Shown: positions 5,167 to 33,549 of the stretch, piece by piece
How the letters are laid out: each line of letters begins with the position of its first letter
Numbering within the stretch: the first letter of the stretch is position 1
Virus record (IMG/VR): IMGVR_UViG_3300024984_000002
Strand: one strand, 5' to 3'
DNA: 41,092 nucleotides
From: a virus
Notes under the pieces: generated by a model
Database searches by the model: none
What the model saw: only the letters and a program-made list of their open reading frames with translations
What the model was told of the DNA's origin: nothing
Made by a program: the position numbers and the translations under genes

Positions 5167-5181
5167 GTAAGGATCCACTCC

Positions 5182-5589
5182 TTAATATTCTTCTGTTGTG
5201 GCTGTTAATGTTAATTCTGCTATCATCATCGGGTTGTTTTGGTCTAATAAAACAAGTATTTCTCCACTTGATACGTTGTGGTAAAGACAACTTCCACCTA
5301 AATCGTAATCACTTCTTAGCTGTTTTATGGTATTTTCTATCATTGTACGTATTGTTAATTGAGGTGCTTTTATATCACTTGTACGCATCGGAATGTACAA
5401 CCGAATTATCCATTCCCAATTCACATTCTTTCGCATAGTTGTTTGATCAGATTGTTCGAACCGATCAAAAAATATTGTTGCTGCAGGCAGATTCATTTTT
5501 TGAGGTTCATAATCATATGCCTCTTTAATATTTGGAACAGTTGCTAAAATCTCTTTGATTTTTTCACCCATTAAATTCAAATCAATCAT
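5182..5589 (-). CDS. Tail completion / tail terminator-like protein
   Basis: 135 aa. Positional call within the HK97-like head-tail joining block; it overlaps the upstream gene by 4 nt. Confidence 0.5.
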   Translation of the reverse strand: MIDLNLMGEKIKEILATVPNIKEAYDYEPQKMNLPAATIFFDRFEQSDQTTMRKNVNWEWIIRLYIPMRTSDIKAPQLTIRTMIENTIKQLRSDYDLGGSCLYHNVSSGEILVLLDQNNPMMIAELTLTATTEEY

Positions 5590-9960: not shown

Positions 9961-11658
9961 TTACCAGCCCATCATTTTGAGATAGTCTTCGGTTGTTTTA
10001 TTTATGTCAATGGAGGAATCCAGCAACATTGTTCTTACGTGTGAGTTAATGGTTGCTGCAGCAGGGTCAATACGTTCGGTTGATTTAGATTTATCGAGCA
10101 TAATATTTTCATTAGCATCCATTCTAGTTACAGCGTTTGCCATTGCTAATGTTAAGACCGGGCTTTCATCATGCTCTACATTACCTTGATATACTTGTTC
10201 TCTAAAATCTTTGGTTGCTGCACCAAGGGTAGCTATTCCCTGTCTAATTTCCACAACTACATAACCTTCATTCTCCATATCCTGCATAAACTGAGTAGCG
10301 TTCCAAGGATCCGCACATATCTCTTTAATTTTAAAGTCGAATGTTTTAGATTTCTCTTTGATAAAAGCTTTAATATATGAGTAATCAACAACCGCACCTG
10401 GAGTGGCTGTTATCCATTTTTGATGTGCCCATAATTGATAATGTGCTTTATCGGTTCTGGCCCTTTGCGATAACGTATCATCTGGCATAAAACTGTGATT
10501 CTTAATAAGGTACTTTCCGTCTTTTTTAATTTCAAAGTTTACGCTCGTTAAGTCGATTTTTGCTGATAAATCGATACCAACGTAAACTTCTTGTCCCCGG
10601 AATTCTTCCCAATTGATTTTCCTTCCGCACTTAGCCCACTTGGACATATCCATGTAACCGTTTGGTTTCTGGTCCACCCATCTATTCATCCTTTTGGTTA
10701 AAAATGACCGCATTTTTTCAGGGTTATCTAATGCTATTTTCAAGTCACTTCTAAGCTTTTTAATACCAGCTTCATACGTTGCTACAATTGGATTTGCTTT
10801 AATCCAAACGGATTCATCCTTAATGTCATCCTCTTCATCCAGCTCACAGATGATAATAAAGTACTCGTCATTATCTCTTGGATCATTAGGGTCTAATACT
10901 CCTGAGCAATACTTATATTCCTTATAGCATGGTCCATTAATGTTGAATCCGCTAGTTGTAATAATGAACATTAATGTGTTTTCACGTGCACCCATCCCTG
11001 AATCAATTACATCGTAGATTTCAGAAGTGTCGTGAGCATGGTATTCATCTACAATTCCTAAACTCGGGTTGGTACCATCACCTGTTTTCTTGGCTTCTTT
11101 AGACAAAGGAACAATGATTGAACCACTTTTAAGATGTGTAATCTTTCCATATGCTTCTTTAAACTTCCCTTTAAGCATTGGGCAGGCTTCTAGTTGTTTG
11201 TTGATGTCGTTGTAGACAAGACTGGACTGTTGCCTATCCCAACCAGCTATATAACACTCTTCTTGCTGATCGCTCAGAAAGGTAATGTAAGAAGCAACTA
11301 TTGCAAGGAATTGTGATTTAGCATTCTTACGTGCAAGTTCGATAAACACTCTTAGAAAACGTCGTTTATTAGTGGCTTTATTCAAGAAACAAAAGATGTT
11401 AGCTCCCACAAATAACTGAAAGTCGGTTAGTTCAATGTATTGACCAGCTAACACACCCTTAAAGTGTTTAAACTGTTTAGCCCATTCGTAAAAGTCATAC
11501 AGTTGATCAATGTCAAAATAAAAAGAGCACTCATCTTGCTGAGTCCTCTCAAGGTCTTTTAAAAATCGTTCACAAGCCCACTTGTGCTTTTTACAAGCTG
11601 GAATAGTTCCATCCAAAATGTCATTTACATATTGGAGGACTCTCTCACCAAGATTCAT
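9961..11658 (-). CDS. terL: Terminase large subunit
   Basis: 565 aa. It has a Terminase_1-like ATPase region (...ARKNAKSQ...; GIVDEYHAHD Walker B-like) and a nuclease C-terminus. It overlaps terS by 4 nt. Confidence 0.9.
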   Translation of the reverse strand: MNLGERVLQYVNDILDGTIPACKKHKWACERFLKDLERTQQDECSFYFDIDQLYDFYEWAKQFKHFKGVLAGQYIELTDFQLFVGANIFCFLNKATNKRRFLRVFIELARKNAKSQFLAIVASYITFLSDQQEECYIAGWDRQQSSLVYNDINKQLEACPMLKGKFKEAYGKITHLKSGSIIVPLSKEAKKTGDGTNPSLGIVDEYHAHDTSEIYDVIDSGMGARENTLMFIITTSGFNINGPCYKEYKYCSGVLDPNDPRDNDEYFIIICELDEEDDIKDESVWIKANPIVATYEAGIKKLRSDLKIALDNPEKMRSFLTKRMNRWVDQKPNGYMDMSKWAKCGRKINWEEFRGQEVYVGIDLSAKIDLTSVNFEIKKDGKYLIKNHSFMPDDTLSQRARTDKAHYQLWAHQKWITATPGAVVDYSYIKAFIKEKSKTFDFKIKEICADPWNATQFMQDMENEGYVVVEIRQGIATLGAATKDFREQVYQGNVEHDESPVLTLAMANAVTRMDANENIMLDKSKSTERIDPAAATINSHVRTMLLDSSIDINKTTEDYLKMMGW

Positions 11659-12131
11659 ACACGATCACCAAACCGTTTTTCAGCTTCAGTTTCAGGTGTC
11701 TTTTCTTCAGGTTTAGGAATAACTAATTTACATCTTGAAGAGATCGTTAAGCCTAAATCACTCGCGTGTGCACGACAGGATTTTTTGGCTCTATCTGATT
11801 CTATAGAATATTTGGACCACAATTCTATATCAAATTCATCTAAGTCCTGGAGCTCTTCTTTTTTAGATTGTATGAACCTATAATCTTTGTAAGATTCAAT
11901 ATATAAGACTAAAGCATTTACATCTAGATTTGTCATTATTCCGATTTTAACTAGCTCATCAGCGATTTTTTTAAATTCCCTTTTCAATTCCTTAGGAAGG
12001 TAAGCCGGTGGTCGTACTTTATCACTTGGAGCTTGAATCTCTTTGGCCTTCCGTTCATCTATCTCAGCTTTAGTCAAATTCTTTTTTCCTTTGTAAAGCA
12101 ATAAATCAACCGGTTGTCTTGGTCTTGCCAT
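11655..12131 (-). CDS. terS: Terminase small subunit, P27 family
   Basis: The N-terminus MARPRQPVDLLLYKGKKNLTKAEIDERKAKE is typical of P27-family small terminases. It lies immediately upstream of terL. Confidence 0.75.
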   Translation of the reverse strand: MARPRQPVDLLLYKGKKNLTKAEIDERKAKEIQAPSDKVRPPAYLPKELKREFKKIADELVKIGIMTNLDVNALVLYIESYKDYRFIQSKKEELQDLDEFDIELWSKYSIESDRAKKSCRAHASDLGLTISSRCKLVIPKPEEKTPETEAEKRFGDRV

Positions 12132-12241
12132 CGTTTTACCTCCTTTCTGGAAATTTCATTTAGGGAATTTTCTGCGAGGAAACCTGTGATGCGGTCTATA
12201 GAGAAAAGGGCAAAACTTTTCGAATACCCCCTACCCCTGTC
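12132..12241. other. Candidate cos region between HNH and terS
   Basis: 110-nt non-coding gap containing the locally most G/C-rich tract (ccccctacccctgtcc, 12227-12242). The HNH + P27 TerS + HK97 module is the usual context of cos packaging. Confidence 0.3.
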
Positions 12242-12625
12242 CTAATTGTGTCTATTTGACAAACAATTTAACTTTTCGACACTTTTGTTACCGAATCCGC
12301 CGTCTTCTTTAACAGTTTTACTTGAATGACAGCTAGTACATAAGCTTTGCCAGTTAGATACTGACCAGAATAGATGCATGTCTCCTTTATGTGGAGTGAT
12401 ATGATCCACTACTGAAGCTACATCACCACACCTAACACAGATAGGATGCTTGGATAAGTATGCTTGTCTAGCTCTTCTCCACTTAGCTCCATACCCACGC
12501 TGTGCTGCTGTCCCTCTGTTCTGATCATACTGATTATTTAATTGTTTATGAGCTTCACAGTATCGTTCTCTAGTTAACTGTGAACACCCTTGTTTATTAC
12601 ATGGTTTTAATGGTTTACTTGGCAT
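12242..12625 (-). CDS. HNH endonuclease (packaging-associated)
   Basis: Cys pairs and the HNH core ...CVRCGDVASVVDHITPHKGDMHLFWSVSNWQSLCTSCHSSKT. It is adjacent to terS. Confidence 0.85.
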   Translation of the reverse strand: MPSKPLKPCNKQGCSQLTRERYCEAHKQLNNQYDQNRGTAAQRGYGAKWRRARQAYLSKHPICVRCGDVASVVDHITPHKGDMHLFWSVSNWQSLCTSCHSSKTVKEDGGFGNKSVEKLNCLSNRHN

Positions 12626-12665
12626 TCAATCAACTCCAAAATAAAAAGCACTCCACAAGGAATGC

Positions 12666-13037
12666 TTACTCTAACCCTAATCTCGTTTTAACTTCTGCCT
12701 TCGCATATTCTTTCAGTACTCCGAATGATACTTGCCCTATCTCTAATCCTTTGTTTTTGATTCCTGATTTTATTTTCTCCCAAACAGTATCATTTTTAAT
12801 TGAATCTAAGAAGTCATGACCTGGCCAAGTTAAAGAATCTGCATACCAAAGAAGGTATTGGTCAATCCCTGAACTTCTTCCATTAACTAATCCATGCTCA
12901 ACTAATAATTTCACATGATAAGATACCTCTTTAAAGTCGTGACCTTCTATATGCCACTCCCTTATCAATCTTTCTCCATCTGCATGTTCCTCTATATATA
13001 GAAGTACTTTTCTTATTAGCTCCATATCTCTTTTCAT
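12666..13037 (-). CDS. Hypothetical protein, DUF2513-like (winged-helix-like)
   Basis: The N-terminus MKRDMELIRKVLLYIEEH resembles my memory of DUF2513 proteins. This was not verified. Confidence 0.45.
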   Translation of the reverse strand: MKRDMELIRKVLLYIEEHADGERLIREWHIEGHDFKEVSYHVKLLVEHGLVNGRSSGIDQYLLWYADSLTWPGHDFLDSIKNDTVWEKIKSGIKNKGLEIGQVSFGVLKEYAKAEVKTRLGLE

Positions 13038-13088
13038 AACGATCTCTCCTTTCGCTTTATAATTCGTCGAAAAGGAGATTATTTCCTG

Positions 13089-13199
13089 CTATTCAACCCC
13101 ATTCCTATCCCTATACATTCTCCAGTTATGTCCACAATAGAAAAGAAGGAAGGTAACGATACAACCAATATTAAATCCAATGATTAGTCCTTTAATCAT
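13089..13199 (-). CDS. Possible 36-aa membrane peptide
   Basis: Hand translation gives MIKGLIIGFNIGCIVTFLLFYCGHNWRMYRDRNGVE. The RBS (GGTGA) is weak. Confidence 0.3.
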   Translation of the reverse strand: MIKGLIIGFNIGCIVTFLLFYCGHNWRMYRDRNGVE

Positions 13200-13210
13200 G
13201 TTGGTTTCAC

Positions 13211-13432
13211 CTACACGATCATATATCCGACAATCTTAACTGCTGGATTAGCTTTTAAATGAAAGTTATCATCATAAGCATTTAAGTAATATCCAAGTTT
13301 TTCTGGAATGTATTCAGTGTTAGTAATAGTTTCAATTGCTCCAGTAGGTAATTGAACAGCAACAGTTATTAATCTTGCACCATCTACTCCATGATTTAAT
13401 TCATTAACAAATCGTCCTCTTACTTTGTTCAT
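13211..13432 (-). CDS. Hypothetical protein (73 aa)
   Basis: ORF in the operon with a 4-nt overlap to the upstream gene. No family recognised. Confidence 0.55.
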   Translation of the reverse strand: MNKVRGRFVNELNHGVDGARLITVAVQLPTGAIETITNTEYIPEKLGYYLNAYDDNFHLKANPAVKIVGYMIV

Positions 13433-13647
13433 CTTCTTCTCATCGCTCCCTTCTCTCTTCTAAGTGTTTGCATATTCATCCCCATCAGTTCCTTTAGATC
13501 ACGTTGAGATAGTTTCTCTTTCTTTTTAACTTTCACAGGTTGTTTTTGTTGTTCTTTCGTTTTATGTTCCTTTTTATTTCTAGCTGCTTTCCTCAGGTTG
13601 TTTAACTTCTGTATGTCTGCTCTGGTTAAGTGCTCGGAAAATAACAT
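13429..13647 (-). CDS. Hypothetical highly basic protein (72 aa)
   Basis: Lys/Arg-rich. It is the first ORF after the long non-coding leader 13648-13970. Confidence 0.55.
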   Translation of the reverse strand: MLFSEHLTRADIQKLNNLRKAARNKKEHKTKEQQKQPVKVKKKEKLSQRDLKELMGMNMQTLRREKGAMRRR

Positions 13648-13740
13648 ACAATCACCTGCTTCAAGTAATACTTACTTAAAAGGACTGTTATCGTTATACG
13701 AATTCAGTCTCTCTCAATGTACAACTTGGTACATGAGCAA

Positions 13741-13778
13741 AATAAAAAGGCGCTGCACCCTATTGGTAACAACGCCTT
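13741..13778 (-). terminator. Possible weak terminator or attenuator hairpin in the late-operon leader
   Basis: The minus strand has AAGGCG-20 nt-CGCCTT followed by TTTTTATTTT. The stem is short. Confidence 0.3.
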
Positions 13779-13882
13779 CTTTCAGTATTTTGTCGAAGAA
13801 ATACTATAACCAACTACAAATCTGTTTTCCGCAGTTCGTAGTTTAATCACATTACTATCTTATCATGTATTTTTCCTAATAA

Positions 13883-13922
13883 CCTGCCAACCTTCTGTCA
13901 TTTATCTGCCTTTTGTCTGCCA
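13883..13922. repeat. Four TCTGYC motifs phased at exactly 11 bp
   Basis: CTGCC, CTGTC, CTGCC and CTGCC start at 13884, 13895, 13906 and 13917 (GGCAGA-like on the minus strand). Confidence 0.6.
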
Positions 13923-13970
13923 GTAATATTACTTTCGTTCAAACTAGAAAAGTTACTAGATAATAAAATG

Positions 13971-14006
13971 AAAAAAAAAGACATAATACCAATTGGCATT
14001 ACGTCT
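13971..14006 (-). terminator. Intrinsic terminator ending the 4-gene cassette
   Basis: The minus strand reads AGACGTAATGCC-AATT-GGTATTATGTCT (12-bp stem including 2 G-U pairs) followed by T9, 35 nt after the stop at 14041. Confidence 0.75.
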
Positions 14007-14040
14007 CTTTAGATAAGAAATATGTCCAAGTCATTACTTT

Positions 14041-14439
14041 TTAATGTACAGTAACTGTATGGCTATCGTTTGTATCATTTATTATAGTTACGTAATTTAA
14101 CGATCTAAGTTGATCAACTAGTTCCGTCGTAAAATTTTTAGGACTAATTATTTTGAAGTTGTTTGGTTTTTCAAATCTTGAACTAACTTGAGTTAAATAA
14201 ATATACTCGTTTACAATACTTAATAATGTATCTCTTAAATTTGGTTGTTCAAAAATAGGATTTATTGTTACTGTACCAAGGCTGTTAATCATCACTTCTA
14301 AGTCGTTTGATTCATATACAAGAAGGTCAGAGGAAGAGTAGACAATATGGGGAACTTTGTCTTCTAGTTCATCTAAAAAGTTATCAATAAAGTACTTATT
14401 TGTGTTAAATAAGACATTTATTTTACTCATTACTCTCAC
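14041..14439 (-). CDS. Hypothetical protein, cassette gene 4 (132 aa; probable start ATG 14430)
   Basis: The ATG at 14430 overlaps the stop of gene 3 (ATGAGTAA). No family recognised. The gene is AT-rich. Confidence 0.6.
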   Translation of the reverse strand: MRVMSKINVLFNTNKYFIDNFLDELEDKVPHIVYSSSDLLVYESNDLEVMINSLGTVTINPIFEQPNLRDTLLSIVNEYIYLTQVSSRFEKPNNFKIISPKNFTTELVDQLRSLNYVTIINDTNDSHTVTVH

Positions 14440-14761
14440 CCTTCTTTTCTAAGTCAATTAGTATTCTATTCATTGTACTAATTTTCCCTATAATTTTCAC
14501 CTTATCCCCAAGGTCGTTTGCTTGAGTAAAATTATAATAGGACGTGGTTGTTTCCGCATGCATTGTCTTTACATTATTTATTCCATAGTAAAGTGGATTT
14601 CCCTGCATTTTACTATCATCTTCATTATATTTTATTACATCTTGTACACGCGTGTGAATATCGGCTAGCCCGTTTTCAATAAAACCATTGGAATAATCTT
14701 TAATCTGCCTGAGTATATCGTCAGCATTTCGGTAAAATTCTTTTTCCTCTTTCGCGCTCAT
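14423..14761 (-). CDS. Hypothetical protein, cassette gene 3 (112 aa)
   Basis: ATGA start/stop overlap with gene 2. No family recognised. Confidence 0.6.
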   Translation of the reverse strand: MSAKEEKEFYRNADDILRQIKDYSNGFIENGLADIHTRVQDVIKYNEDDSKMQGNPLYYGINNVKTMHAETTTSYYNFTQANDLGDKVKIIGKISTMNRILIDLEKKGESNE

Positions 14762-15390
14762 CCTTTTAACGCCCCAAATCGTTTATTAATTTCTACCTCA
14801 ACTGCTTTTAATAATCTTATAAGTTCTGGTTCACTATCCTGATATTTTTCAGGAGTAGTAATCCCTTCGCATTCTATGTATAGCTTATCTAATAATCCCT
14901 TAAGTTCCTTTGGAGCAAATGTGAGCATTACCGAATTATCCAAGATCACTCTTTTGATATTATTAAAGTCTATATCGTTATTTTTCAATTCTTTATTTTT
15001 AAGTTCTTTAACTAGAGGTATGTAAACAGATGGCAATAGCTGCTTTAATGCCAAATCGAACTTTATTTGTAATTGTGCGTTCCTTCGGTTCAGATAATAA
15101 ATGACAAAAGTAACTGCCGCAGATATTATAGAACTTATTATTCCGATTGGTATCGCTAGCCCCCAAAATGTAATATTTTTTGATTCACCTTTAGTCGCTA
15201 CATTTCCCGATTCACCACTCGGACCTACCTCAATTAATACATCCCCGTTATTTGAAGTATTAATTTTCACTGAACCTTCACTGATTTTTACCTTTACATC
15301 ATCTGTATTAATTTCTGTGCTTCCATATGCATAGTATGAAGGAAATAGTAAAAAAGATAAGGTTAATAAAAATATAACTTTTCCCTTCAT
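14758..15390 (-). CDS. Hypothetical single-pass membrane protein with signal peptide, cassette gene 2 (210 aa)
   Basis: Signal-like N-terminus MKGKVIFLLTLSFLLFPSYYAYG, TM helix FWGLAIPIGIISSIISAAVTFVIYYL and a cytoplasmic tail of about 110 aa. TAATG overlap with gene 1. Confidence 0.65.
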   Translation of the reverse strand: MKGKVIFLLTLSFLLFPSYYAYGSTEINTDDVKVKISEGSVKINTSNNGDVLIEVGPSGESGNVATKGESKNITFWGLAIPIGIISSIISAAVTFVIYYLNRRNAQLQIKFDLALKQLLPSVYIPLVKELKNKELKNNDIDFNNIKRVILDNSVMLTFAPKELKGLLDKLYIECEGITTPEKYQDSEPELIRLLKAVEVEINKRFGALKG

Positions 15391-16022
15391 TATTTTACCT
15401 GGTTGCTCTCTTGACTAGCCTTGATACCTTGAAGCACTTCTTCTAATCTTGAATTAAATTCATCTGTAAACTTTTTATATTCACCAACAAGTTTCATGTC
15501 GATTTGATTATTTCCCCTATGTAGTTTTTGCTCAAAGTTATTCAACAACTGATTCATTAGGTTTAATCCTGAATTAAAGTCTAAGGAGGTCTTAAACGTA
15601 CTAGAGTCATTATTAATCAAACTCATATTAACTTGGTTTGGTTGCATATCGTTAATTGAAAAGAATGTGTAATTTAAAAAATTCGGCATTGCTAGTGATT
15701 TTTCTGCATTTACAATGTACACGGAGCATACCTTTTTCAACAGTTCCAACCTTCTATAAGCAGTCATATTCTTTGATTTAAAACCCTCGAAGTTTACTTC
15801 CCCTTTCAAAAAGGAAAGAATTGGCATTGTATGAAATCCAAGGATTTGATGTAGTTGGACTTGATAAGTAATATAACTTGATACATTTTCTTCTTTTCCA
15901 GTTAATAATACGAAATTGTTGGTAGCCTGTTCTAAAAATTGAAGATTATTACCTTCCGAAAGAAACTTCAGTGCATCCTCGAAATCAGATAAAAATTTCT
16001 CAATTTGTTCCAAATTATTCAC
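15390..16022 (-). CDS. Hypothetical protein, cassette gene 1 (210 aa; start GTG 16022 or TTG 16013)
   Basis: The RBS GAGGTG (16020-16025) overlaps the GTG and lies 6 nt before the in-frame TTG at 16013. No family recognised. Confidence 0.6.
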   Translation of the reverse strand: MNNLEQIEKFLSDFEDALKFLSEGNNLQFLEQATNNFVLLTGKEENVSSYITYQVQLHQILGFHTMPILSFLKGEVNFEGFKSKNMTAYRRLELLKKVCSVYIVNAEKSLAMPNFLNYTFFSINDMQPNQVNMSLINNDSSTFKTSLDFNSGLNLMNQLLNNFEQKLHRGNNQIDMKLVGEYKKFTDEFNSRLEEVLQGIKASQESNQVK

Positions 16023-16197
16023 CTCATATTCTATTAATATAAATATACCATTTTTTTGAATATTATCTATACCGAATTACTCATATCTTATATTTTGTTT
16101 CATTCACACAAACGCTATAAGCCTTGATACACATAATTCAAATACACTTCTTAAAAATGAATGACACACTCACTTAATATGGTTAATTGATTAAAAC

Positions 16198-16236
16198 AAA
16201 ATAAAAAAAGCTCATCCTACTTAAATAGGAGAGCTT
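16198..16236 (-). terminator. Intrinsic terminator after the small recombinase gene
   Basis: The minus strand reads AAGCTCTCCTA-TTTAAG-TAGGATGAGCTT (11 bp with a 1-nt bulge) followed by TTTTTTATTTT. Confidence 0.75.
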
Positions 16237-16777
16237 AGATTTTAAATCCTCTGATTGCTTTGTTTTGAATGTCTTCATCTATTCCAATGTATCTTAAAGT
16301 AAATGCTGGATCCGAATGGTTAAGTATCTTTTGTAGCAAGGCCACGTCTTTATATTTCATATACATGTGATAGCCGAATGTCTTTCTCATGGTATGTGTA
16401 CCAATATCATCTAATCCCACATACTCAGCAGCCTCACGTAATATCTTATAAGCCATGCTTCGACCAATGGGTTTGTTTATACCCTTTCGGCTTAAAAAAA
16501 GATATTCATGGTCTTCCTTGCCCTCAACATACTTCTTTAATTCACTTTGTAATTGAGTAGTCATGTCAAAACGTCTCTTCTTACCTGTTTTTATTTCAAT
16601 GATGTTAAAGTAAGAACGTTTCGTATCCTTTACCCTTAGTTGAAGAATATCTGATACTCTAAGTCCAGAATTAATTCCGGTCACAAATAACATGTAATTT
16701 CTTTCGCTTTTCTCTCTTAAAAACTTCTTTATTTCAAAGATCATATCTGGATCACGGATGGGTTGGACGAAGTTCAT
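16235..16777 (-). CDS. Core-only tyrosine recombinase (180 aa, no N-terminal arm or core-binding domain)
   Basis: Catalytic signature present: GLRVSD (Arg), HTMRKTF (His-x-x-Arg), LNHSDPAFTLRYIGI (His..Tyr). ATGA overlap with the arpU-like gene. Confidence 0.8.
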   Translation of the reverse strand: MNFVQPIRDPDMIFEIKKFLREKSERNYMLFVTGINSGLRVSDILQLRVKDTKRSYFNIIEIKTGKKRRFDMTTQLQSELKKYVEGKEDHEYLFLSRKGINKPIGRSMAYKILREAAEYVGLDDIGTHTMRKTFGYHMYMKYKDVALLQKILNHSDPAFTLRYIGIDEDIQNKAIRGFKI

Positions 16778-17229
16778 GAACCAACCACATCCTTTTCAAC
16801 GTACTTTTCTACTTTCAAAGCAAAAGCTAAGTTGTAAAAGGCTCGAGCTTTTAAACGGTAATACTTACGTTCTGACATTCCCATTTGATTATATAGCTCA
16901 TAGTCATACACTTCATCTTCAAGATACCTTTTTATAATTAGTTCTCTCTCTTTGTATCTTAATCGATTTATGGCTCTTGTTACCCACTCGATGTGTTTTT
17001 CTTTTGCTACCTCATAATCTATATTTCCAATTGCGATCTGTTCAGTCTGGGAGTGGAATTCATTTGAAAATGATGGAGGTACAAGAGAGTAAGTAGCTGT
17101 CATTTTTGGCATCTTATCTTCAGGAACCGAAAGCAAATAGATTCGATATTTCTCCAATGCTTTTTCAACAAGTGACTTGGTTTGCTCTCGGTCGATTTCT
17201 GGTAACGTAAAGAATAATTGACTCACCAT
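16774..17229 (-). CDS. ArpU-family late transcriptional regulator
   Basis: 151 aa. The C-terminus ...ERELIIKRYLEDEVYDYELYNQMGMSERKYYRLKARAFYNLAFAL is a sigma region-4-like HTH typical of the ArpU/RinA class. It lies upstream of the packaging genes. Confidence 0.75.
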   Translation of the reverse strand: MVSQLFFTLPEIDREQTKSLVEKALEKYRIYLLSVPEDKMPKMTATYSLVPPSFSNEFHSQTEQIAIGNIDYEVAKEKHIEWVTRAINRLRYKERELIIKRYLEDEVYDYELYNQMGMSERKYYRLKARAFYNLAFALKVEKYVEKDVVGS

Positions 17230-17623: not shown

Positions 17624-18613
17624 CTACATAACTAGATGTTTCTTGTGTTGTTCTCGTTTTCGCTCTTCGGTAATCCTTGCATATCTTAATGTTGTATCTG
17701 GGCTACTGTGACCTAACAGTTCCTGTACAGCAACCAACTCTGCTCCGTTATTTAGTGTTAAAGTGGCGAATGTATGTCTCAGTACATGTGGACTCACTTT
17801 CTTTTCAAGACCAGCATCCTTTGCTATTTGCTTAATTTCTCGCTGTATGCCACGTTTAGAAAGACGACCGTATGGTTTTCTTTCTGACACCATGAGTGCT
17901 GGATCATCATCAGATCGACTCTTTAAATACTTCTTCAAGTGGTACATAGCCTTATAAGAAAGGTAAACTTCTCTCTCTTTATTTCCTTTACCAATAACGT
18001 TTGTAGACATGGACTGAATGTTTATATCCGTTCTGTTTAGTTGATGTATTTCAGATAGACGACAACCTGTTGCATATAACACTTCAATGAATGCTCTTTG
18101 TCTAACTGTTTTACACGATTCTCTAAGTAATTCAAGCTCTTCGATAGTTAAAGCTTTCGGTAATCTTTTTTCTGTCTTAGGTGGCTTTAGTTTTGCTGCA
18201 GGATCTCTGTTAATGATTTCTTCCCCTGCTAACCATCCAAAGAAACTTTTGATTACTGATAACTTTCTTCCGATTGTACTCATCTTTACGTTGGTCTGTT
18301 GAGCGAGGTAATTACGAATGTCAGCTGCAGTAATATCTTTGGTTAATTTCTTAACTGAGTTTGCAAATAAACCTAGCTCTAATCGATAACCATCTAATGT
18401 AAGTGGGCTCAATCCTTCAAGTTTTTTTGATGAAATAAAGAGGTGAACCTTATCGTGTAAATCTGGATGAACCTCCTCTTCATCAATCTTCTGGATGTTA
18501 TATCTAGTAACGATAGCTGATATTTTATTTTTAGCATCATCAAAGGAAAAGGCTGGTACAATATCACCTATTAAGGCCGCGATCTCTGATATGAGTTGTT
18601 CTCCAGCGTACAT
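17624..18613 (-). CDS. XerC/XerD-like tyrosine recombinase
   Basis: 329 aa. An N-terminal SAM-like core-binding domain is followed by the catalytic motifs ATGCRLSEI, HVLRHTFAT and LGHSSPDTTLRYARI. Confidence 0.85.
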   Translation of the reverse strand: MYAGEQLISEIAALIGDIVPAFSFDDAKNKISAIVTRYNIQKIDEEEVHPDLHDKVHLFISSKKLEGLSPLTLDGYRLELGLFANSVKKLTKDITAADIRNYLAQQTNVKMSTIGRKLSVIKSFFGWLAGEEIINRDPAAKLKPPKTEKRLPKALTIEELELLRESCKTVRQRAFIEVLYATGCRLSEIHQLNRTDINIQSMSTNVIGKGNKEREVYLSYKAMYHLKKYLKSRSDDDPALMVSERKPYGRLSKRGIQREIKQIAKDAGLEKKVSPHVLRHTFATLTLNNGAELVAVQELLGHSSPDTTLRYARITEERKREQHKKHLVM

Positions 18614-26977: not shown

Positions 26978-28108
26978 ATGACAGCAATGAAGGGTTATGT
27001 CCGCAAGAGGGGAAGTAAGTGGAGTTATACTGTTGATATCGGTCGTGATCCAATAACGGGAAAAAGAAAACAAAAAACAAAAGGAAGTTTTAACACTCAA
27101 AAAGAGGCAGAACAAGCACTAAATGAAGTGATTTATGAGTTCAATAAAGGGATATATATTGAACCGAATAAAATAATGGTTAAAGATTTTGCTAACGAGT
27201 GGATTGAAGGGTATAAGTATAACCTTCGAGATACCACAGCGGAACAGTATATTTCTAAAATCAATAAATGGATCATTCCTTTAATTGGGCATTACAAGAT
27301 ACAAGATTTAAAACCGGTACACGCTCAGAATTTTTCAGGACAATTACTCGCTAACATGAAGCCTAGTACCGCTCATAAAGTATACGCAATCACAAAACTA
27401 ATAGTTAAACACGCTGTACAACTTGAATTGATTACCAGAAACCCTTTCGAAAATGTATCTATTAAAGATCAAAAAAAGAAAGTGGAAACATGGACATTTG
27501 AAGAGATGAACCATTTCTTAGAAACAGTAAAGATGCACAATGAATTTTTCTATCGTGTGTTCGCTACCGCAGTTTTTACTGGAATGAGAAAAGGAGAAGT
27601 GTTAGGACTACGGAGGATAGATGTGGATCTAAGCAACAAGAAATTATCTCTCAAACAAAGTTTAACTGAAACAAAAGAAAAAGGTGTCCAAGTGAGCGAC
27701 TTGAAAACACCTTCGTCCTATCGCCAGGTAGCAATAGATGATTTTCTCATCTCTATAATAAAGGAACAGATCCATAAAAACAATGAAATGAAGTTAAAAT
27801 TAGGTTCTGAATACCAAGATTATGGGCTGATATTTTGCAATGTGGACGGAGCTCCCTATCGACCAACAAGTATCAATAGACCTTTTCGAAAGTACGTGGA
27901 GCTTTCTGGAGTGCCTAAATTACGGTTTCACGACCTTAGGCATACTCATGCTACCTTATTACTCGAAATGAATGTAAACCCTAAAATTGTAGCTGATAGA
28001 TTGGGGCACTCTTCTGTAAAAATCACATTAGATACCTATTCTCATGCTTCGTTAGGAATGCAGCAAAATGTAGCAGATCAGTTTTCTAAACGTGCATTAA
28101 AAGCTTGA
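26978..28108 (+). CDS. int: Tyrosine integrase (likely start ATG 26987)
   Basis: The N-terminus MKGYVRKRGSKWSY is an arm-binding type. Catalytic motifs are GMRKGE, RFHDLRHTHAT and LGHSSVKITLDTYSH. The RBS AAAGGAG lies 9 nt before ATG 26987. Confidence 0.9.
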   Translation: MTAMKGYVRKRGSKWSYTVDIGRDPITGKRKQKTKGSFNTQKEAEQALNEVIYEFNKGIYIEPNKIMVKDFANEWIEGYKYNLRDTTAEQYISKINKWIIPLIGHYKIQDLKPVHAQNFSGQLLANMKPSTAHKVYAITKLIVKHAVQLELITRNPFENVSIKDQKKKVETWTFEEMNHFLETVKMHNEFFYRVFATAVFTGMRKGEVLGLRRIDVDLSNKKLSLKQSLTETKEKGVQVSDLKTPSSYRQVAIDDFLISIIKEQIHKNNEMKLKLGSEYQDYGLIFCNVDGAPYRPTSINRPFRKYVELSGVPKLRFHDLRHTHATLLLEMNVNPKIVADRLGHSSVKITLDTYSHASLGMQQNVADQFSKRALKA

Positions 28109-28355: not shown

Positions 28356-28375
28356 TATCGATTGACCTTTTTTTT
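28342..28375 (+). terminator. Hairpin plus T8 (plus strand) at the convergent int / parR ends
   Basis: GGTCAAT-12 nt-ATTGACC followed by TTTTTTTT (28368-28375). Confidence 0.5.
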
Positions 28376-28589
28376 ATATCAGATCACTCATAAAATCCTC
28401 TGTCTCTAATGGTTTACTTACTTCAACTACATTCATAGTGGATTTAGTCATCCCTTCCAAATCTCTCTGAATTAATGCTTTAATATAAGCTGAAATATTC
28501 TCATATTGCTCACAATGGTCAAACAACTTCTTTTGGTGAGGATCCAATACATTAAATGATACAGATTTATTTTTGATTAACTTTGCCAT
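28374..28589 (-). CDS. parR: ParR-like ribbon-helix-helix adaptor protein
   Basis: 71 aa directly downstream of, and overlapping, the ParM-like gene. The N-terminus KSVSFNVLDPHQKKLFDHCEQYENISAYIKALIQRDL fits an RHH (beta strand plus two helices). Confidence 0.55.
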   Translation of the reverse strand: MAKLIKNKSVSFNVLDPHQKKLFDHCEQYENISAYIKALIQRDLEGMTKSTMNVVEVSKPLETEDFMSDLI

Positions 28590-29409
28590 AAATAGAACAT
28601 CCTATCTTATAGAAGCCGATCGCATTTGCGAATGTAGGATCACCACACACAGATTCATATATCGGCTTCAATACTTCCATGTTCGGATAGTACTGTTGAA
28701 TATAAGGAATTAACTTTTCTGCAGCACCACCGACTAAATAGCCTTTATCACTGTTATTCCACTTCTTTGTTGTGTGGGTGACTATTCCCCTTGCTAGTGC
28801 TGATAAGTCGCTAGAAACAACTGTATTTAAACCAAAAGGTAAGGTGAATGAGTCTCTATCTACATACCTCTTGTTTAATAAGGAAGCGCAGTTCACAGTA
28901 GCACTACCCACATCGATGATTCTTACTAATCCATCTTTCGGTTTACTCCAGAAGGAAGCTCCACCCTCAGCTGCTACTTCCACATGAGAGATAAGAATAA
29001 CTTTTGTCTTATCATTCACAGTGATTTCATGGGAACCCTTCAACATATCTTTAATTCGTTTCTTTTCTTCCTCGGTATGCTTACTGATCGGCTGACCGAC
29101 AATAATTTGAAATTGATTTGTAGTCTGACTATATCTGTGGAGGGCAAGTAAGATTCTTAGTTTTGCATCCTCATGCGCTTTACTATCTCCCATTAGAGAA
29201 CCACCAAACTCTGATTCAGCATCAGCTAGGCTCCCAGCAAATCCTTTTCTTCCTTCAAACTCGAAAATCATATCATCCTTACCTGGAGTGTTCTTAATTC
29301 TCCTTTCTCGATATTCGCCTAATGTAGAGCTGAATATATCTAGTCCTTGTGGACCACAAACCTTTACCCGGTAATTCCCTGCATCAATACCAACTATCAT
29401 TTTATACAC
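28567..29409 (-). CDS. parM: ParM/StbA-family actin-like segregation ATPase (likely start ATG 29400)
   Basis: Phosphate-1 motif IVGIDAGNYRVK, phosphate-2 motif IIDVGSATVN and an overall length of about 280 aa are typical of ParM-like proteins. Confidence 0.75.
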   Translation of the reverse strand: MYKMIVGIDAGNYRVKVCGPQGLDIFSSTLGEYRERRIKNTPGKDDMIFEFEGRKGFAGSLADAESEFGGSLMGDSKAHEDAKLRILLALHRYSQTTNQFQIIVGQPISKHTEEEKKRIKDMLKGSHEITVNDKTKVILISHVEVAAEGGASFWSKPKDGLVRIIDVGSATVNCASLLNKRYVDRDSFTLPFGLNTVVSSDLSALARGIVTHTTKKWNNSDKGYLVGGAAEKLIPYIQQYYPNMEVLKPIYESVCGDPTFANAIGFYKIGCSIYGKVNQK

Positions 29410-29414
29410 CTCTC

Positions 29415-29470
29415 TGGTTACTAACTAGTTAAGAACTAAATTTTCGTGGTTACTAACTAGTAAGGAACTA
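29415..29470. repeat. Two 24-bp direct repeats upstream of parM (candidate parC centromere/operator)
   Basis: TGGTTACTAACTAGTTAAGAACTA (29415-29438) and TGGTTACTAACTAGTAAGGAACTA (29447-29470): 22/24 identical, 32-bp period, each containing an ACTAGT palindrome. Confidence 0.55.
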
Positions 29471-30091
29471 TAAATCTTCTTTCGTTAAAATCATGTGTTT
29501 CAATCCTACTTTTTCGCACGATGCTTCAAGTATCTTTTTTCTGTGGTCAGTTGTTGTATAAAAAACGAGTACTGGTTTAGTTTTAAATTGCTGTTCAATG
29601 GCTGGAGATAATAACTGATATTGGCTTATCTTCTTTTTGTTTTCAGTCATGGATTGTGTACGATCTACTTCTAAAAAGTGGAACACATCATTAAGGGAGA
29701 ATGTAGCATCTGGAACAATGGTTGCTTCTTTGTAGCTTAATCCTGATTGATATTTGAAAATAATAGGTAATTCATTCTCCCAATCCTTTGGACATTCAAA
29801 GTAGATATACATATCGTTTCTTAAAAGATGGTGGTCAATCTGATTATTCCATTTGATTTCTTTATCGGAGCCTATCACTTCCCTTCCTTGCTGATTAAGG
29901 TAGTAAATGTTTTCTGATACACGTTTGATATGCATATACTCATTCATCTCCTTGAGTACTCTTATTGCATTTCTATCCGTTCCAAGGTCATGTAACTTCT
30001 GTAAATGATGTCTAGTGGCGAATCCCATCTTTTCCAAACTTAACAAGATCTTCTCTTGTCTCTTTCTTTTCTTCTCGATGTTCGACAACAT
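29468..30091 (-). CDS. Replication-relaxation family protein (putative relaxase/initiator)
   Basis: 207 aa. The N-terminal winged-helix-like ILLSLEKMGFATRHHLQKLHDLGTDRNAIRVLKEMNEY resembles the Replic_Relax family. It is paired with an FtsK-like translocase, as in Gram-positive mobilisable elements. Confidence 0.55.
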   Translation of the reverse strand: MLSNIEKKRKRQEKILLSLEKMGFATRHHLQKLHDLGTDRNAIRVLKEMNEYMHIKRVSENIYYLNQQGREVIGSDKEIKWNNQIDHHLLRNDMYIYFECPKDWENELPIIFKYQSGLSYKEATIVPDATFSLNDVFHFLEVDRTQSMTENKKKISQYQLLSPAIEQQFKTKPVLVFYTTTDHRKKILEASCEKVGLKHMILTKEDL

Positions 30092-31274
30092 GATCTGGCT
30101 TAACCTCCAATACTTGTGGTTGTTGGTATTTCTCTAATCGCTCCCACATTTCATCATGTGAGATAAAAGGTACTTGTAATTCCTTTAATTCATGTGTTTT
30201 AAATAAGGCCCTTCCTTTTATATCAGAAGGTAATTCCTCAGCTCCACGATCATCTATTGCAACCTCAGAAGCATACCCAGAAGGTAAACGGAAGGTGATT
30301 TTTGCATCACTATTCTGTTTTATGGAACGTGGCAAGGTATCGCTAGTTGGATACTGGGTTGCAAAGATTAAACGATATGAGAGCGCACCTGTGACTCGAG
30401 CAATCTCACCTAAGAAATACTGACACATACCCAATAGACTTTTCATTTCTCTACTCATCCATTTTTCTGGTGCTAACTGTGCGGCTTCATCCACAATTAT
30501 GAAGCGTCTCTTCTTGATATTTGTATCAACTACATTAGATATGTTTTTCTGTCTAAACTCTTTATAAAGCTCTTGGTATTCCTCATGTAACTTTTCAAGT
30601 AGATCAGCAGCTTCCATTGGATTTGAAGCGACCTTTTTAACTTGTTCTAAATGTTCGTATCGACCAAACTCTAAACCACCTTTTAAATCAATAATGTAGA
30701 ATTCAACATCATTTGGGTGGTTTTCAATTAAATAAGTCATCATCATACGAAGATAAACGGTTTTTCCAAAACGAGTAGTACCAGCGACTGTCATATGTGG
30801 TGTGTGGTCAAAGTTATGCCATATTAACCCTTCAACGGATTTCCCTATAGGTACTAACCACTTATTAGATTTATGTGGAAGATCAGCGTAAGGGAATAAC
30901 TCAGGAAGCTCCTCATTGTATACTTTTATTTGAAGTAATCCCTTTTTAAATTCAACTTCTACAGGCTTACCAAGACCATCACTAAACACATTGATTTCCT
31001 TCTCAACCTTTTTCATTTTAGTAGCTGGTAATCCTAAAGGTACGGAAAAGTGATAATTCACTCCAATTTCTTTATCACCGTCAAAAAGTTTCTTCTTGAA
31101 TTTAAAAGTAGGAGTTTTGATTGGCTCTTCTTCACTTTTACCTGGTATTCCATATCGAGTGTTCTTGAATATATTTTCAATTTTCTTTTTGTCTGACATA
31201 CCACTTTTTGGTATTAAAGCTACACCGGCCACAGCTAACGGAAATGCTAACCATTCAATCACGAAGCTCACCAC
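30012..31274 (-). CDS. FtsK/SpoIIIE (TraB/TcpA-like) membrane-anchored DNA translocase
   Basis: N-terminal TM segment, Walker A VAGTTRFGKT, Walker B FIIVDEAAQL, 420 aa. Confidence 0.85.
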   Translation of the reverse strand: MVSFVIEWLAFPLAVAGVALIPKSGMSDKKKIENIFKNTRYGIPGKSEEEPIKTPTFKFKKKLFDGDKEIGVNYHFSVPLGLPATKMKKVEKEINVFSDGLGKPVEVEFKKGLLQIKVYNEELPELFPYADLPHKSNKWLVPIGKSVEGLIWHNFDHTPHMTVAGTTRFGKTVYLRMMMTYLIENHPNDVEFYIIDLKGGLEFGRYEHLEQVKKVASNPMEAADLLEKLHEEYQELYKEFRQKNISNVVDTNIKKRRFIIVDEAAQLAPEKWMSREMKSLLGMCQYFLGEIARVTGALSYRLIFATQYPTSDTLPRSIKQNSDAKITFRLPSGYASEVAIDDRGAEELPSDIKGRALFKTHELKELQVPFISHDEMWERLEKYQQPQVLEVKPDHVVEHREEKKETREDLVKFGKDGIRH

Positions 31275-31464
31275 TTTCCCATAGGTTAAACGCTTCGTAC
31301 TTAATGTAATTCTTTAGTTCACAGTAATAATCACTTCCATAAAACTCTTGGATTTCATCTTCTGTTAAATCCTCAAGAGCTCTTTCAGCTAATACTTTCA
31401 TCTCGATAAACAATCTGTTTTTACGGCTGATTTTCATATAAAAATCGCATCCTTTCTTAACCAT
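31255..31464 (-). CDS. Hypothetical protein (69 aa)
   Basis: ORF overlapping the start of the translocase gene. Confidence 0.5.
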   Translation of the reverse strand: MVKKGCDFYMKISRKNRLFIEMKVLAERALEDLTEDEIQEFYGSDYYCELKNYIKYEAFNLWESGELRD

Positions 31465-31592
31465 TCAGAATGAAATGAGGGATGGGTGAGACCTTAGCGA
31501 AAAGCTAAGGGAGTTTAATTTAAAAAGAACCTTTCAAAAAACCTATAAAACTAGTAATCACAACGAACGGAATATACTGAAGAAAATTCTAC

Positions 31593-31859
31593 CTAAAACC
31601 CAGTCAATACATGCCTGAAAAGAGGATTCTTAAATATAGTCCAAAGTAGAGAGAACAGAATACCTGAAAGCATAAGCACCCGTACAAAGGCTTCGTTAAT
31701 CGGAATACCCATCTTTTCTAGTGCTATCATTCCTAATAGGACAGCTCCCGTACCAACAAAGAAGGTCAAGCCCCCATCCACCATAGAGAAGATACCAGGA
31801 CTAGGGCTAATAGATCCAGCAACAAAAGCTTTAAAAGGAATCACTTCATAAGTCATCAT
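31593..31859 (-). CDS. Hypothetical membrane protein (88 aa, 2-3 TM)
   Basis: Hydrophobic segments GGLTFFVGTGAVLLGMIAL and VLMLSGILFSLLWTIF. Confidence 0.55.
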   Translation of the reverse strand: MMTYEVIPFKAFVAGSISPSPGIFSMVDGGLTFFVGTGAVLLGMIALEKMGIPINEAFVRVLMLSGILFSLLWTIFKNPLFRHVLTGF

Positions 31860-32134
31860 TTATTCTCCTTTTCCCACATCTTTTTATATTGATCTTTAGC
31901 TTTGAAATAAACTTTGTCATAGCTTTCGATTCCAACGTCAACGCAACTGTATCGCTCCATATAGAGCATTAATTCATGAAGATCCTCTAGATCATCTGCT
32001 TCCCACAATAATTCATTGAGATAGTTGGAGCTAAACAACATAGGATAGGTGTTCAGCTCATCAAACTTCCTCTGGTGAAACTCATCTTGCTTAGCTTCCT
32101 TATAACCTTCAAACATTGACCATAGGAGGCTCAT
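31856..32134 (-). CDS. Hypothetical protein (92 aa)
   Basis: 4-nt overlaps with both neighbours. Confidence 0.55.
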   Translation of the reverse strand: MSLLWSMFEGYKEAKQDEFHQRKFDELNTYPMLFSSNYLNELLWEADDLEDLHELMLYMERYSCVDVGIESYDKVYFKAKDQYKKMWEKENK

Positions 32135-32343
32135 AGAGGTTCACCAACTTGCAAGAAAGCATTTAATGGAAGCTCCCATTCACACCATTCAGATGGATCA
32201 TCATCCTTCTCTCCAATAAGTAGCCAATAAACGTTATAAACGTTTCCATCGGCATCTAACGCTCTTACCACACAATACTCTTCATCCACAATACAAGGCT
32301 GATTGATAGCATGAAGCTCTTTTCCTCTGTAGTTAATAGTCAT
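32131..32343 (-). CDS. Hypothetical protein (70 aa)
   Basis: First gene of the minus-strand operon that leads to the translocase. Confidence 0.55.
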   Translation of the reverse strand: MTINYRGKELHAINQPCIVDEEYCVVRALDADGNVYNVYWLLIGEKDDDPSEWCEWELPLNAFLQVGEPL

Positions 32344-32381
32344 TAGCTATCCTTCCTTTCGTTGTTTGATAGTCTATTCTT

Positions 32382-32702
32382 ATGACCATTCCGAAAGGAA
32401 GTTGCCTGTCTATCACAAATTTATTTGGATTTTACAAAAAATATTGTGAAAGGAATAATATTACTTGTACCGAATACATATATTGGGTGATAAATATGGT
32501 AGTAGTTCTGATAGGAAATTGGATTAAACGATCTAATTATTCGAGGGTAGAAATCTGCAATGAGTTTGGTATATCTCAGAATACCTTATCAAATTGGTGT
32601 ACTGGGAAGACTTATCCTTCTATTCCACAAGCTTTAAAACTTGCATCAATGTTGAACGTAAAGGTAGATGATCTTTACGTAATAAAGGAGGAAGAAGAAT
32701 GA
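32382..32702 (+). CDS. XRE-type HTH regulator (likely start ATG 32496, 68 aa)
   Basis: The HTH is YSRVEICNEFGISQNTLSNWCTGKTYP. An RBS GGGTGA lies 5 nt before ATG 32496. It is divergent from the 32343 operon. Confidence 0.65.
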   Translation: MTIPKGSCLSITNLFGFYKKYCERNNITCTEYIYWVINMVVVLIGNWIKRSNYSRVEICNEFGISQNTLSNWCTGKTYPSIPQALKLASMLNVKVDDLYVIKEEEE

Positions 32703-33298
32703 AGAAAATGGTTATTTTAGTATTGGCCGCTTTCCTTTTAGGAGGATGTGTTCAGTACAAAGATGGTAAGCCAGTAGAAACAGCAAGTAGTGAAGAGAAG
32801 CCAAAAGAAGAAGTGAAGAAAGAAGAACCTAAAAAAGAAGAAAAGCCAGTTAATGAGGAAAAGGTTGAAGAGATAAAGTTACCAACTAATAATGAAGAAT
32901 TAACAGCTTACTTAGAAAATGTTCTTCCGAAGGAAGCTAAAGGTGAAGTTGCTGTAACTAATTTTGAAGATGGAACTATAAGTGCACAAGTCGTCTTTCA
33001 AATAGAAGATGGATTTGTTTTAGAAGCACCTGCTAAAGATGCTGCACGAGACTTTATTTTTGCTGCTTATGCTTCAGGAATGGATATTGGTTATGCCATG
33101 GCTGCAATTAATGCCCCGGATGGTTCACTTGGTTTATCAGTAGGTGTCGGTAAAGAAGCAGCTGCTACACAAGATCCTTCCACATGGACTGATTCTTCTG
33201 TAGGTGCAACTGTATTTCTTGATTGGGTAAAGGAAAATATAAATGAAACTGAGGTTTTTACTCAACGAGTATTTTTAAGTGGCCAATGGGCTAAATAA
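32699..33298 (+). CDS. Lipoprotein (199 aa) with Lys/Glu-rich tether
   Basis: The signal plus lipobox is MKKMVILVLAAFLLGGC. It is followed by SSEEKPKEEVKKEEPKKEEKPVNEEK and then a globular domain of about 130 aa. Confidence 0.75.
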   Translation: MKKMVILVLAAFLLGGCVQYKDGKPVETASSEEKPKEEVKKEEPKKEEKPVNEEKVEEIKLPTNNEELTAYLENVLPKEAKGEVAVTNFEDGTISAQVVFQIEDGFVLEAPAKDAARDFIFAAYASGMDIGYAMAAINAPDGSLGLSVGVGKEAAATQDPSTWTDSSVGATVFLDWVKENINETEVFTQRVFLSGQWAK

Positions 33299-33309
33299 GG
33301 AGAAAAATA

Positions 33310-33549
33310 ATGAAAGAAGTATTCCTAAGAATCAATTACACCTCCCCAGCCGGCAGATCCGAACGAAAAGGTAACTTCCCATTACGTGGTCAACGTCCAG
33401 AAGAAGTTGCTTTGGATTGGTGGGAGAAAGATGTCAGTAGAGGTGTAGAAAAGAAGCTAGATAAGATACTGGCTGATGGTGTGGATATAACGGAGAAAGT
33501 GTTAGAAGTGAGAAAAGAACGATGGTATAAACTTGGATTACCTTTTTAA
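33310..33549 (+). CDS. Hypothetical protein (79 aa)
   Basis: Third gene of the plus-strand operon, followed by a terminator. Confidence 0.55.
   Translation: MKEVFLRINYTSPAGRSERKGNFPLRGQRPEEVALDWWEKDVSRGVEKKLDKILADGVDITEKVLEVRKERWYKLGLPF

Follow-up and report, generated by a model that had tools for sequence, protein, structure and literature searches.

A putative four-gene moron between the early and late operons of a temperate phage genome

What role could be served by a compact cluster of four small genes of no recognized family that sits between the early and late operons of a temperate phage? We addressed this question in the IMG/VR virus record IMGVR_UViG_3300024984_000002, of which the whole stretch of 41,092 nucleotides (nt) is called the window below. 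The window is a temperate siphovirus-type genome; a near-identical 41-kb contig has been assembled from many metagenomes, and no GenBank phage is close to it. Temperate-phage cargo slots are the source of many anti-phage and host-modifying systems. The cassette studied here, which a first-pass annotation of the sequence had proposed as a self-contained and horizontally acquired unit, is a compact 2.15-kb candidate with its own signals and four small proteins that match nothing in defence, phage and protein-family libraries. Our comparisons indicate that the four genes form an autonomous transcription unit that moves horizontally (a moron), most likely an accessory module that would be expressed in the lysogen and that could perhaps act in phage exclusion. 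Both of the earlier proposals find support in the discreteness of the insertion, in its own signals and in its recurrence in unrelated contexts.

The insertion, its genes and its signals

Four prophages of the Robertmurraya korlensis type (loci L001-L004) share with the window both the flank that carries ArpU and a short integrase gene (about 93% identity) and the downstream flank. In blastn comparisons at about 93% identity, all four siblings lose homology to the window at position 16073/16074 and regain it at about 13934-13913; L001 has about 40 nt between the breakpoints instead of 2151 nt. This break and resumption of homology defines a discrete 2.15-kb insertion (Table 1), and its absence from siblings that are 93% identical on both flanks means that the cassette is dispensable for the phage. 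The four genes have a GC content of 31.4% and the 2151-nt insert one of 30.7%, compared with 37.0 +/- 1.6% in non-overlapping segments of the same size (z -4.0), and the GC minimum of the whole 41-kb window coincides exactly with the insert. The AT-richness reported earlier is therefore real, although less marked than the hand counts behind it had implied.

Table 1. Coordinates of the insert, its genes and the adjoining signals in the window
Feature	Position	Strand	Description
Inserted segment	13923..16073		About 2.15 kb (2151 nt); promoter-like site, four genes and terminator; missing from close prophages
Promoter-like site, sigma-A-type	16042..16069	-	TAGATA, 16 nt, TGgTATATT (extended -10); consensus scan 9/12 + TG
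Gene 1	15390..16013	-	207 amino acids (aa), soluble; TTG start at 16013 behind GAGGTG Shine-Dalgarno
Gene 2	14758..15390	-	210 aa; membrane anchor and cytoplasmic helical domain
Gene 3	14423..14761	-	112 aa, soluble, acidic C-terminus
Gene 4	14041..14430	-	129 aa, soluble; ATG start at 14430
Cassette terminator	13975..14010	-	16-bp stem, 4-nt loop, T9 run; inside the insert, near its end
Upstream terminator	16198..16236	-	Ends early operon (ArpU and short integrase-fold gene); phage backbone
GRCAGR array	13883..13921	-	Four phased hexamers, 11-bp period; flank, directly downstream of insert; -10-like CATGATAAGAT follows about 20 nt on

An open reading frame (ORF) check of the window confirmed all four minus-strand ORFs of the first-pass annotation at the coordinates it had given. 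Later starts, taken from independent gene calls on identical metagenome contigs, shorten the products of gene 1 (207 instead of 210 aa) and gene 4 (129 instead of 132 aa). The overlapping stop and start codons were also seen as described, with overlaps of 1 nt at TAATG, 4 nt at ATGA (genes 2/3) and 8 nt at ATGAGTAA (genes 3/4), and the non-coding flanks measure 212-221 nt upstream and 393 nt downstream, in agreement with the lengths first estimated. Genes 1, 3 and 4 encode proteins with no hydrophobic segment and 10-12% asparagine, as expected from their earlier description as soluble and Asn-rich. Comparison by hhalign found no relationship among the four families.

The promoter-like site lies 4 nt inside the left breakpoint of the insert. 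A TGGTATATT-type -10 element also occurs upstream of gene 1 in two other loci that carry the cassette (L011 and L014), with variants in a further two (L010 and L012). Of the two hairpins that had been said to bracket the unit, the downstream one (14010-13975) has a predicted folding energy of -19.2 kcal/mol (z -7.6) and the upstream one (16236-16198) of -14.3 kcal/mol (z -4.2, with none of 200 shuffles as good), and each is followed by a T-run; a consensus scan found only the downstream terminator because the upstream stem is bulged. Both are thus strong, as claimed, but the upstream terminator sits in a stretch that is 93% identical in cassette-less relatives and therefore belongs to the early-operon backbone of the phage rather than to the cassette, so that we rejected the reading of both terminators as cassette parts. 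The upstream terminator nevertheless insulates the cassette from early transcription. An Rfam scan of positions 13400-16400 gave chance-level matches only, located on the terminators.

On the minus strand, the genes upstream of the cassette comprise the integrase and CI/Cro genes, a Rha antirepressor gene, DnaD-/DnaC-like replication genes, a XerC-like recombinase gene, and ArpU with a 180-aa integrase-fold gene; after the cassette come DUF2513, HNH, terS, terL, portal, protease, capsid and tail genes. In the circular gene order of this phage, the cassette lies about 16 kb from the GH25 lysin gene. The GRCAGR array that adjoins the insert occurs once in the window, where chance alone would give 0.015 occurrences, and is found at the equivalent place, upstream of the late genes, in three siblings (L001 10745-10790, L002 7163-7208 and L003 5020-5055) as well as in the unrelated phage L010 (11400-11445), 10 nt past gene 4. 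It is probably an activator-dependent late promoter, in which the hexamers would be the binding array of the late activator, perhaps ArpU. Since the insert borders the early terminator on one side and this putative late promoter array on the other, the cassette would lie exactly where early transcription has ended and late transcription has yet to begin.

In two siblings, a gene for a 69-aa small membrane protein of the Pmp3 family (L001 11336-11545 and L002 7754-7963) occupies the corresponding slot region, and in L003 an 83-aa ORF (5169-5420) does so. The contents of the slot differ among siblings and the slot is therefore variable, which marks this part of the phage as a hotspot of cargo exchange. 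The cargo-slot position proposed in the first-pass annotation is strongly supported by this comparison: in siblings of about 93% identity, a Pmp3-type gene or another small gene comes after a stretch of only about 40 nt. The comparison of related phages that it had recommended likewise revealed a varying slot, with the cassette missing in L001-L004. Separately, an ISL3 transposase gene is inserted upstream of ArpU in L003 (2407-3729).

Recurrence of the gene set and its predicted proteins

We found the four-gene set, in the same order, at 13 distinct loci that diverge to 11-27% identity, with products of about 200-209, 143-246, 104-116 and 127-158 aa for genes 1-4 across the retrieved loci. 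Initial searches of 5.8 billion protein clusters returned a single further relative for gene 1 and three relatives for gene 2. A profile of gene 1 found five clusters among the 5.8 billion, and an exhaustive HMMER search with a profile of gene 2 found 26 proteins among 1.84 billion representatives. No match was obtained in 50,697 phage genomes and 72,556 plasmids by DNA and protein searches (tblastn), and scans of IMG/VR with alignments of genes 1, 2 and 4 recovered no relatives.

The carriers differ in kind, and the positions within them are those typical of cargo slots, apart from one chromosomal site. In the unrelated phages L010 and L012, the cassette occupies the early/late boundary just upstream of HNH genes. 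In Bacillus sp. T33-2 (L013) it lies beside the tail/lysis end of a prophage, and in L014 at the end of a primase/D5-helicase element that resembles a phage satellite. It directly follows holin-endolysin genes in L015/L016, L018 and L021, the last being a prophage in GCA_042749055.1 in which the cassette (11642-14080) is succeeded by a HicA/HicB pair, a WYL-domain gene, a LexA-like helix-turn-helix (HTH) gene, two YolD-like genes and the host opp genes. Four loci (L017, L019, L020 and L022) are short contigs. In L011 (9397-11455), the cassette stands alone on a 76-kb chromosomal contig between sufB and a DUF72/TauE/metallophosphatase/yunB/lipA block, and no phage, integrase or transposase gene occurs within 9 kb on either side; the cassette therefore needs no other phage gene.

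In divergent loci, the neighbouring genes were homologous by profile comparison, with E-values of 1e-57 to 2e-5 for gene 1 and 8e-51 to 5e-3 for gene 4, and gene 3 was confirmed in four of six such loci. Conservation at the same position was seen for gene 3 in 8 further loci and for gene 4 in 10 further loci. The cassette is more AT-rich than its flanks in every locus (27-33% against 33-48% GC), for example in L011 (27.2% against 41-43%) and L021 (33.3% against 44-48%). The junction of genes 2 and 3, GGGGCGYTAAWWGRATGA (window positions 14755-14775), is conserved at the nucleotide level in L010-L014 although protein identity there is only 36-50%. Within it lie the codons for the invariant gene 2 C-terminus GAL(K/I)(G/E), and it overlaps the start of gene 3. 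This conservation suggests a joint constraint by the protein tail and by translational reinitiation. Taken as a whole, the comparison indicates that the cassette, a passenger of temperate Bacillaceae phages and related elements, keeps its four genes together as it passes from one unrelated genomic setting to another, and that it persists without phage genes. Such a signature, in which an intact and compositionally foreign unit recurs in unrelated phages, in a satellite-like element and in a chromosome, is that of a selected mobile function.

The moron concept is said to come from Hendrix, Juhala and colleagues. Morons are autonomous promoter-gene-terminator insertions of lambdoid and other temperate phages, and most of those described are single genes. 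The cassette resembles them in being present or absent in near-identical phages between two backbone genes, and in having its own promoter-like site, its own terminator and a deviant base composition. It differs in joining four translationally coupled genes in one operon, which unrelated elements carry as a conserved unit. The genomic kind, a moron or cargo-slot module, is already well known; what is new is the content, four very rare unannotated families in which a putatively COMMD-like subunit is tied to a membrane anchor.

Searches of Pfam, PHROGs, NCBIfam, PADLOC and PDB sequences, the last with single sequences and with profiles from 4-, 7- and 10-member alignments, gave no significant match for any member of the four families. 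At the sequence level, the earlier statement that no family could be recognized therefore holds. The four proteins and their homologs produced sub-threshold noise only (TMEM100, DBB, RteC, PDC-S02 and DUF4760), and no enzymatic domain was found for any of the four in any library searched. At the structural level, a likeness that the first-pass annotation had missed emerged for gene 1 when its AlphaFold2 (AF2) model was searched with Foldseek. The model, built from a five-sequence alignment, has a mean predicted local distance difference test score (pLDDT) of 75. Its N-terminal domain consists of helices at residues 2-18, 23-40, 44-70 and 83-108 (pLDDT 74-94), and its C-terminal part of strands at 113-120, 127-134 and 139-145, a helix at 146-165 and an extra C-terminal helix, all with a pLDDT of 53-70, values that are plausible for a domain requiring a dimer partner. 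Against the PDB, the top five matches were all COMMD-fold proteins, with 171-194 aligned columns: Cpn0803 (3q9d, E 1.4e-4) and CT584 (4mlk, E 5e-4), both with a Foldseek probability of 1.0, and human COMMD subunits such as 8p0w_E and 8esd_N (E 0.02-0.1). Nothing significant was found in BFVD.

The COMMD fold combines a helical HN domain with a COMM domain, in which an extended helix follows a three-stranded antiparallel sheet (Liu et al. 2026, PMC13392464), and the Chlamydial structures 3Q9D (Cpn0803) and 4MLK (CT584) have been classed with it (PMC13392464). The gene 1 model shows both elements, an all-helical N-terminal HN domain and a three-stranded antiparallel sheet followed by a long helix, as do COMMD-like proteins and Cpn0803/CT584. 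It departs from COMMD-like proteins in its extra C-terminal helix and in having no sequence similarity to them: neither the four gene 1 members scanned (at E <= 1) nor the PDB profile searches matched the Pfam COMM domain or any PDB sequence with the COMMD fold. Prokaryotic COMMD-like proteins are themselves less than 20% identical to eukaryotic ones (PMC13392464). We consider, with moderate confidence, that gene 1 is COMMD-like in fold. The prokaryotic family dimerises obligately and builds rings of 8-10 subunits, and no function is known for it (PMC13392464). The published survey describes its members as single genes with no predicted neighbour partners, and does not mention phages or Bacillota (PMC13392464), whereas gene 1 is locked in an operon with a membrane anchor and two more proteins. 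If gene 1 is COMMD-like, the operon adds obligate genomic partners that are missing from that survey, and the function of a bacterial COMMD-like protein becomes a four-gene cloning question in Bacillus.

The topology first proposed for gene 2 was reproduced, with a signal-peptide-like N-terminus (AYG|S), one transmembrane (TM) helix and, C-terminal to it, a tail of about 110 aa. A variable ectodomain of about 50 aa precedes a strong hydrophobic segment at about residues 73-101, within which the TM helix spans about 76-98; the segment is followed by RRN, and the positive-inside rule is satisfied. In the AF2 model, the cytoplasmic domain (about 110-207) is an all-helical bundle with a pLDDT of 70-88, and the ectodomain consists of low-confidence strands. 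Conservation across 11 members is 0.28 in the ectodomain against 0.53 in the cytoplasmic domain, whose motifs include a QIKFDLALKxLLPxVYxPL helix and the invariant C-terminal RFGAL. Relatives of gene 2 come in long and short forms, and about half of the 26 lack the ectodomain yet retain the three partners. The invariant core therefore consists of the TM anchor and cytoplasmic domain of gene 2 together with genes 1, 3 and 4. The ectodomain, on which the first-pass annotation had laid stress, is optional, and we rejected it as the key functional part.

Short forms of gene 2 resemble Pfam DUF4760, a family of unknown function, in combining an N-terminal TM helix with a helical domain of about 120 aa. 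They remain below the Pfam gathering threshold: one member gave one faint match (E 0.11, 13 bits against a cutoff of 25) that lies mostly on the TM segment, and none of ten distant gene 2 members matched. A search of the PDB with the gene 2 model gave generic likenesses to four-helix bundles (HPt) and the Hsp70 lid at E > 0.1, which were not used. For gene 3, weak PDB sequence matches were to generic coiled-coil proteins only, and the protein is probably a helical hairpin or coiled coil. The sequence of gene 4 has what looks like an alternating strand/helix pattern, which suggests a mixed alpha/beta protein; its matches to RicA/YmcA (E 0.18-0.38) vanished with a broader profile, and this candidate was rejected.

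Candidate functions and alternatives

Anti-phage cargo is common in phage and satellite hotspots. In view of the slots that the cassette occupies, its mobility and its variable exposed domain, we think that its most likely role is to protect the cell that carries it from other phages, through exclusion or Rex-like abortive infection, and we put this forward tentatively, at a probability that falls somewhat short of even. The first-pass annotation had likewise conjectured a membrane-anchored superinfection-exclusion or abortive-infection module, or else an anti-defence module. The cassette's own putative sigma-A-type promoter would make its transcription independent of the phage programme, and since that promoter is of a housekeeping type, transcription is expected in the lysogen as well. 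Overlapping stop and start codons would couple the translation of the four proteins, which may then come together on the cytoplasmic side of the membrane. Gene 2 would provide the anchor (N-out, with one TM helix), and the invariant RFGAL tail of its conserved cytoplasmic domain could serve as a docking site. Gene 1 might dimerise and oligomerise into a scaffold or ring, with the products of genes 3 and 4 as small adaptor or sensor subunits. Because no catalytic domain is recognizable, such a complex would work through binding or through a disturbance of the membrane. In one version it would stop the incoming genome at the membrane (superinfection exclusion); in another it would respond to a sensed infection by making the membrane permeable (abortive infection, following a Rex-like logic).

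Lambda RexAB, Sie2009, Ltp and T4 Imm and Sp are membrane-acting abortive-infection or exclusion modules, and lambda RexB is polytopic. Like these, the cassette is prophage cargo with independent transcription signals, and it combines a membrane component with cytoplasmic partners that have no catalytic domains. It differs in having four components rather than one or two, in the single TM helix of gene 2 as opposed to the polytopic RexB, and in its lack of homology to them or of any match in PHROGs, Pfam or PADLOC. A more specific version, in which a COMMD-like ring forms the core of a novel machine for immunity or exclusion that is tethered to the membrane and has no enzymatic activity, is in our judgement rather unlikely. 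If it were true, a prokaryotic COMMD-like protein would for the first time have partners on which it depends and with which it co-evolves, namely a membrane anchor and two adaptors, and the system would offer a tractable view of the COMMD fold before its eukaryotic recruitment to endosomal trafficking. Even if the cassette has no phenotype, it would still be a well-documented multi-gene moron.

Several points weigh against a protective role. Its families are extremely rare, which is unusual for a successful defence system, and the sampled loci lie outside recognizable defence islands, with the exception of the HicAB neighbour in L021. No defence or anti-defence model matched the cassette: PADLOC-DB v2.0 contained no match for genes 1, 2 and 4, and one 14-bit match for gene 3 (E 0.0046, over 42 residues) to a candidate family was judged to be noise. 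The COMMD-fold matches of gene 1 have low TM-scores (0.27-0.42) and root-mean-square deviations of 17-18 A despite their significant Foldseek E-values. Structural models cover two of the four proteins (genes 1 and 2), and expression in lysogeny, complex formation and oligomerisation are all properties that we infer. Nor is insulation universal: in L010 (11389-11445) a terminator lies upstream of gene 1 and none between gene 4 and the late GRCAGR array, so that the insulation of the cassette differs between carriers.

These points have to be balanced against other explanations of the same data. One is that the four reading frames are chance ORFs or decaying remnants in an AT-rich spacer, as might be argued from their lack of database annotations and from a low GC content that makes long ORFs less rare. 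The comparative data speak so strongly against this that we treat it as excluded for practical purposes, since the ORFs are intact, syntenic and homologous across the 13 loci (E 1e-5 to 1e-63) at 11-27% identity, their junction architecture is conserved, and the AF2 models contain confident folded domains. Another explanation, which we consider unlikely but the likeliest of these alternatives, is a moron of host physiology whose complex alters a trait of the lysogen (envelope or membrane organisation, stress tolerance, sporulation, germination or competence) and so benefits the carrier. No domain points to a specific pathway, the distribution is overwhelmingly among phages and mobile elements in slots rich in anti-phage cargo, and a hypervariable ectodomain (0.28 against 0.53) fits an arms race better than housekeeping. 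In its favour, the autonomous unit stands alone in a chromosome between suf genes and yunB/lipA, no defence model matches it, and the COMMD fold is otherwise tied to membrane-associated scaffolds, not to immunity (PMC13392464).

The unit is also small, AT-rich, highly mobile and translationally linked, and it includes a single-TM protein with a conserved juxtamembrane helix and, in L021, a HicAB neighbour, all of which would suit a selfish addiction module in which gene 2 is a membrane-active toxin restrained by one or more cytoplasmic partners and stabilises the carrier element. Four unrelated, strictly co-conserved proteins exceed the needs of an addiction pair, none of them resembles a toxin or antitoxin family in Pfam, NCBIfam or PADLOC, and the large folded cytoplasmic domain of gene 2 is unlike small pore-forming toxins, which makes this reading improbable. 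We would give a similarly low weight to a role at the membrane in the lytic cycle itself, such as lysis timing, genome ejection or entry, or the organisation of replication or assembly. The position of the cassette directly after holin-endolysin genes in several loci and just before the late operon in three phages, in one of which (L010) no terminator precedes the late promoter, is compatible with such a role; its dispensability in siblings 93% identical on both flanks, its presence without phage genes in L011, its varying position between phages, its own promoter-like site and terminator, and the absence of any Pfam or PHROG match to a holin, antiholin or spanin family are not. Finally, the complex might sequester or inactivate a host immune component and so enable phage replication. 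The proteins are small, non-enzymatic, phage-borne and without homologs, as an anti-defence module could be, and the gene 1 model gave a very weak, non-significant Foldseek match to the Acb4 sponge of phage SPO1, which at E 0.7 is at chance level. Anti-defence genes are usually single and expressed early. A membrane anchor, a separate housekeeping-type promoter, a terminator that shields the unit from the early operon and a copy that stands alone in a chromosome are all atypical of them, and we regard this possibility as very improbable.

Integrase-fold genes and a plasmid-like gene set

The gene neighbourhood yielded several further observations. Upstream of the insert, an ArpU-family gene (151 aa, minus strand), which has no Pfam match and was named from cluster members, overlaps the gene for the 180-aa protein by 4 nt (16235-17229). 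The 180-aa protein consists of a tyrosine-recombinase catalytic domain alone, and its pairing with ArpU is kept in relatives. A full-length XerC-like recombinase gene (329 aa, 17624-18613, minus strand) lies just upstream, and with the attachment-site integrase gene (26978-28108) this phage carries three integrase-fold genes. A set of genes resembling those of plasmids or integrative and conjugative elements adjoins the integrase (28374-33549). It encodes an actin-like ALP_N protein (28567-29409), a Replic_Relax protein (29468-30091) and an FtsK/SpoIIIE ATPase (30012-31274), together with a second CI-like HTH gene on the opposite strand (32382-32702). This set may represent a second small integrative element, or it may be a segregation or transfer module of the phage.

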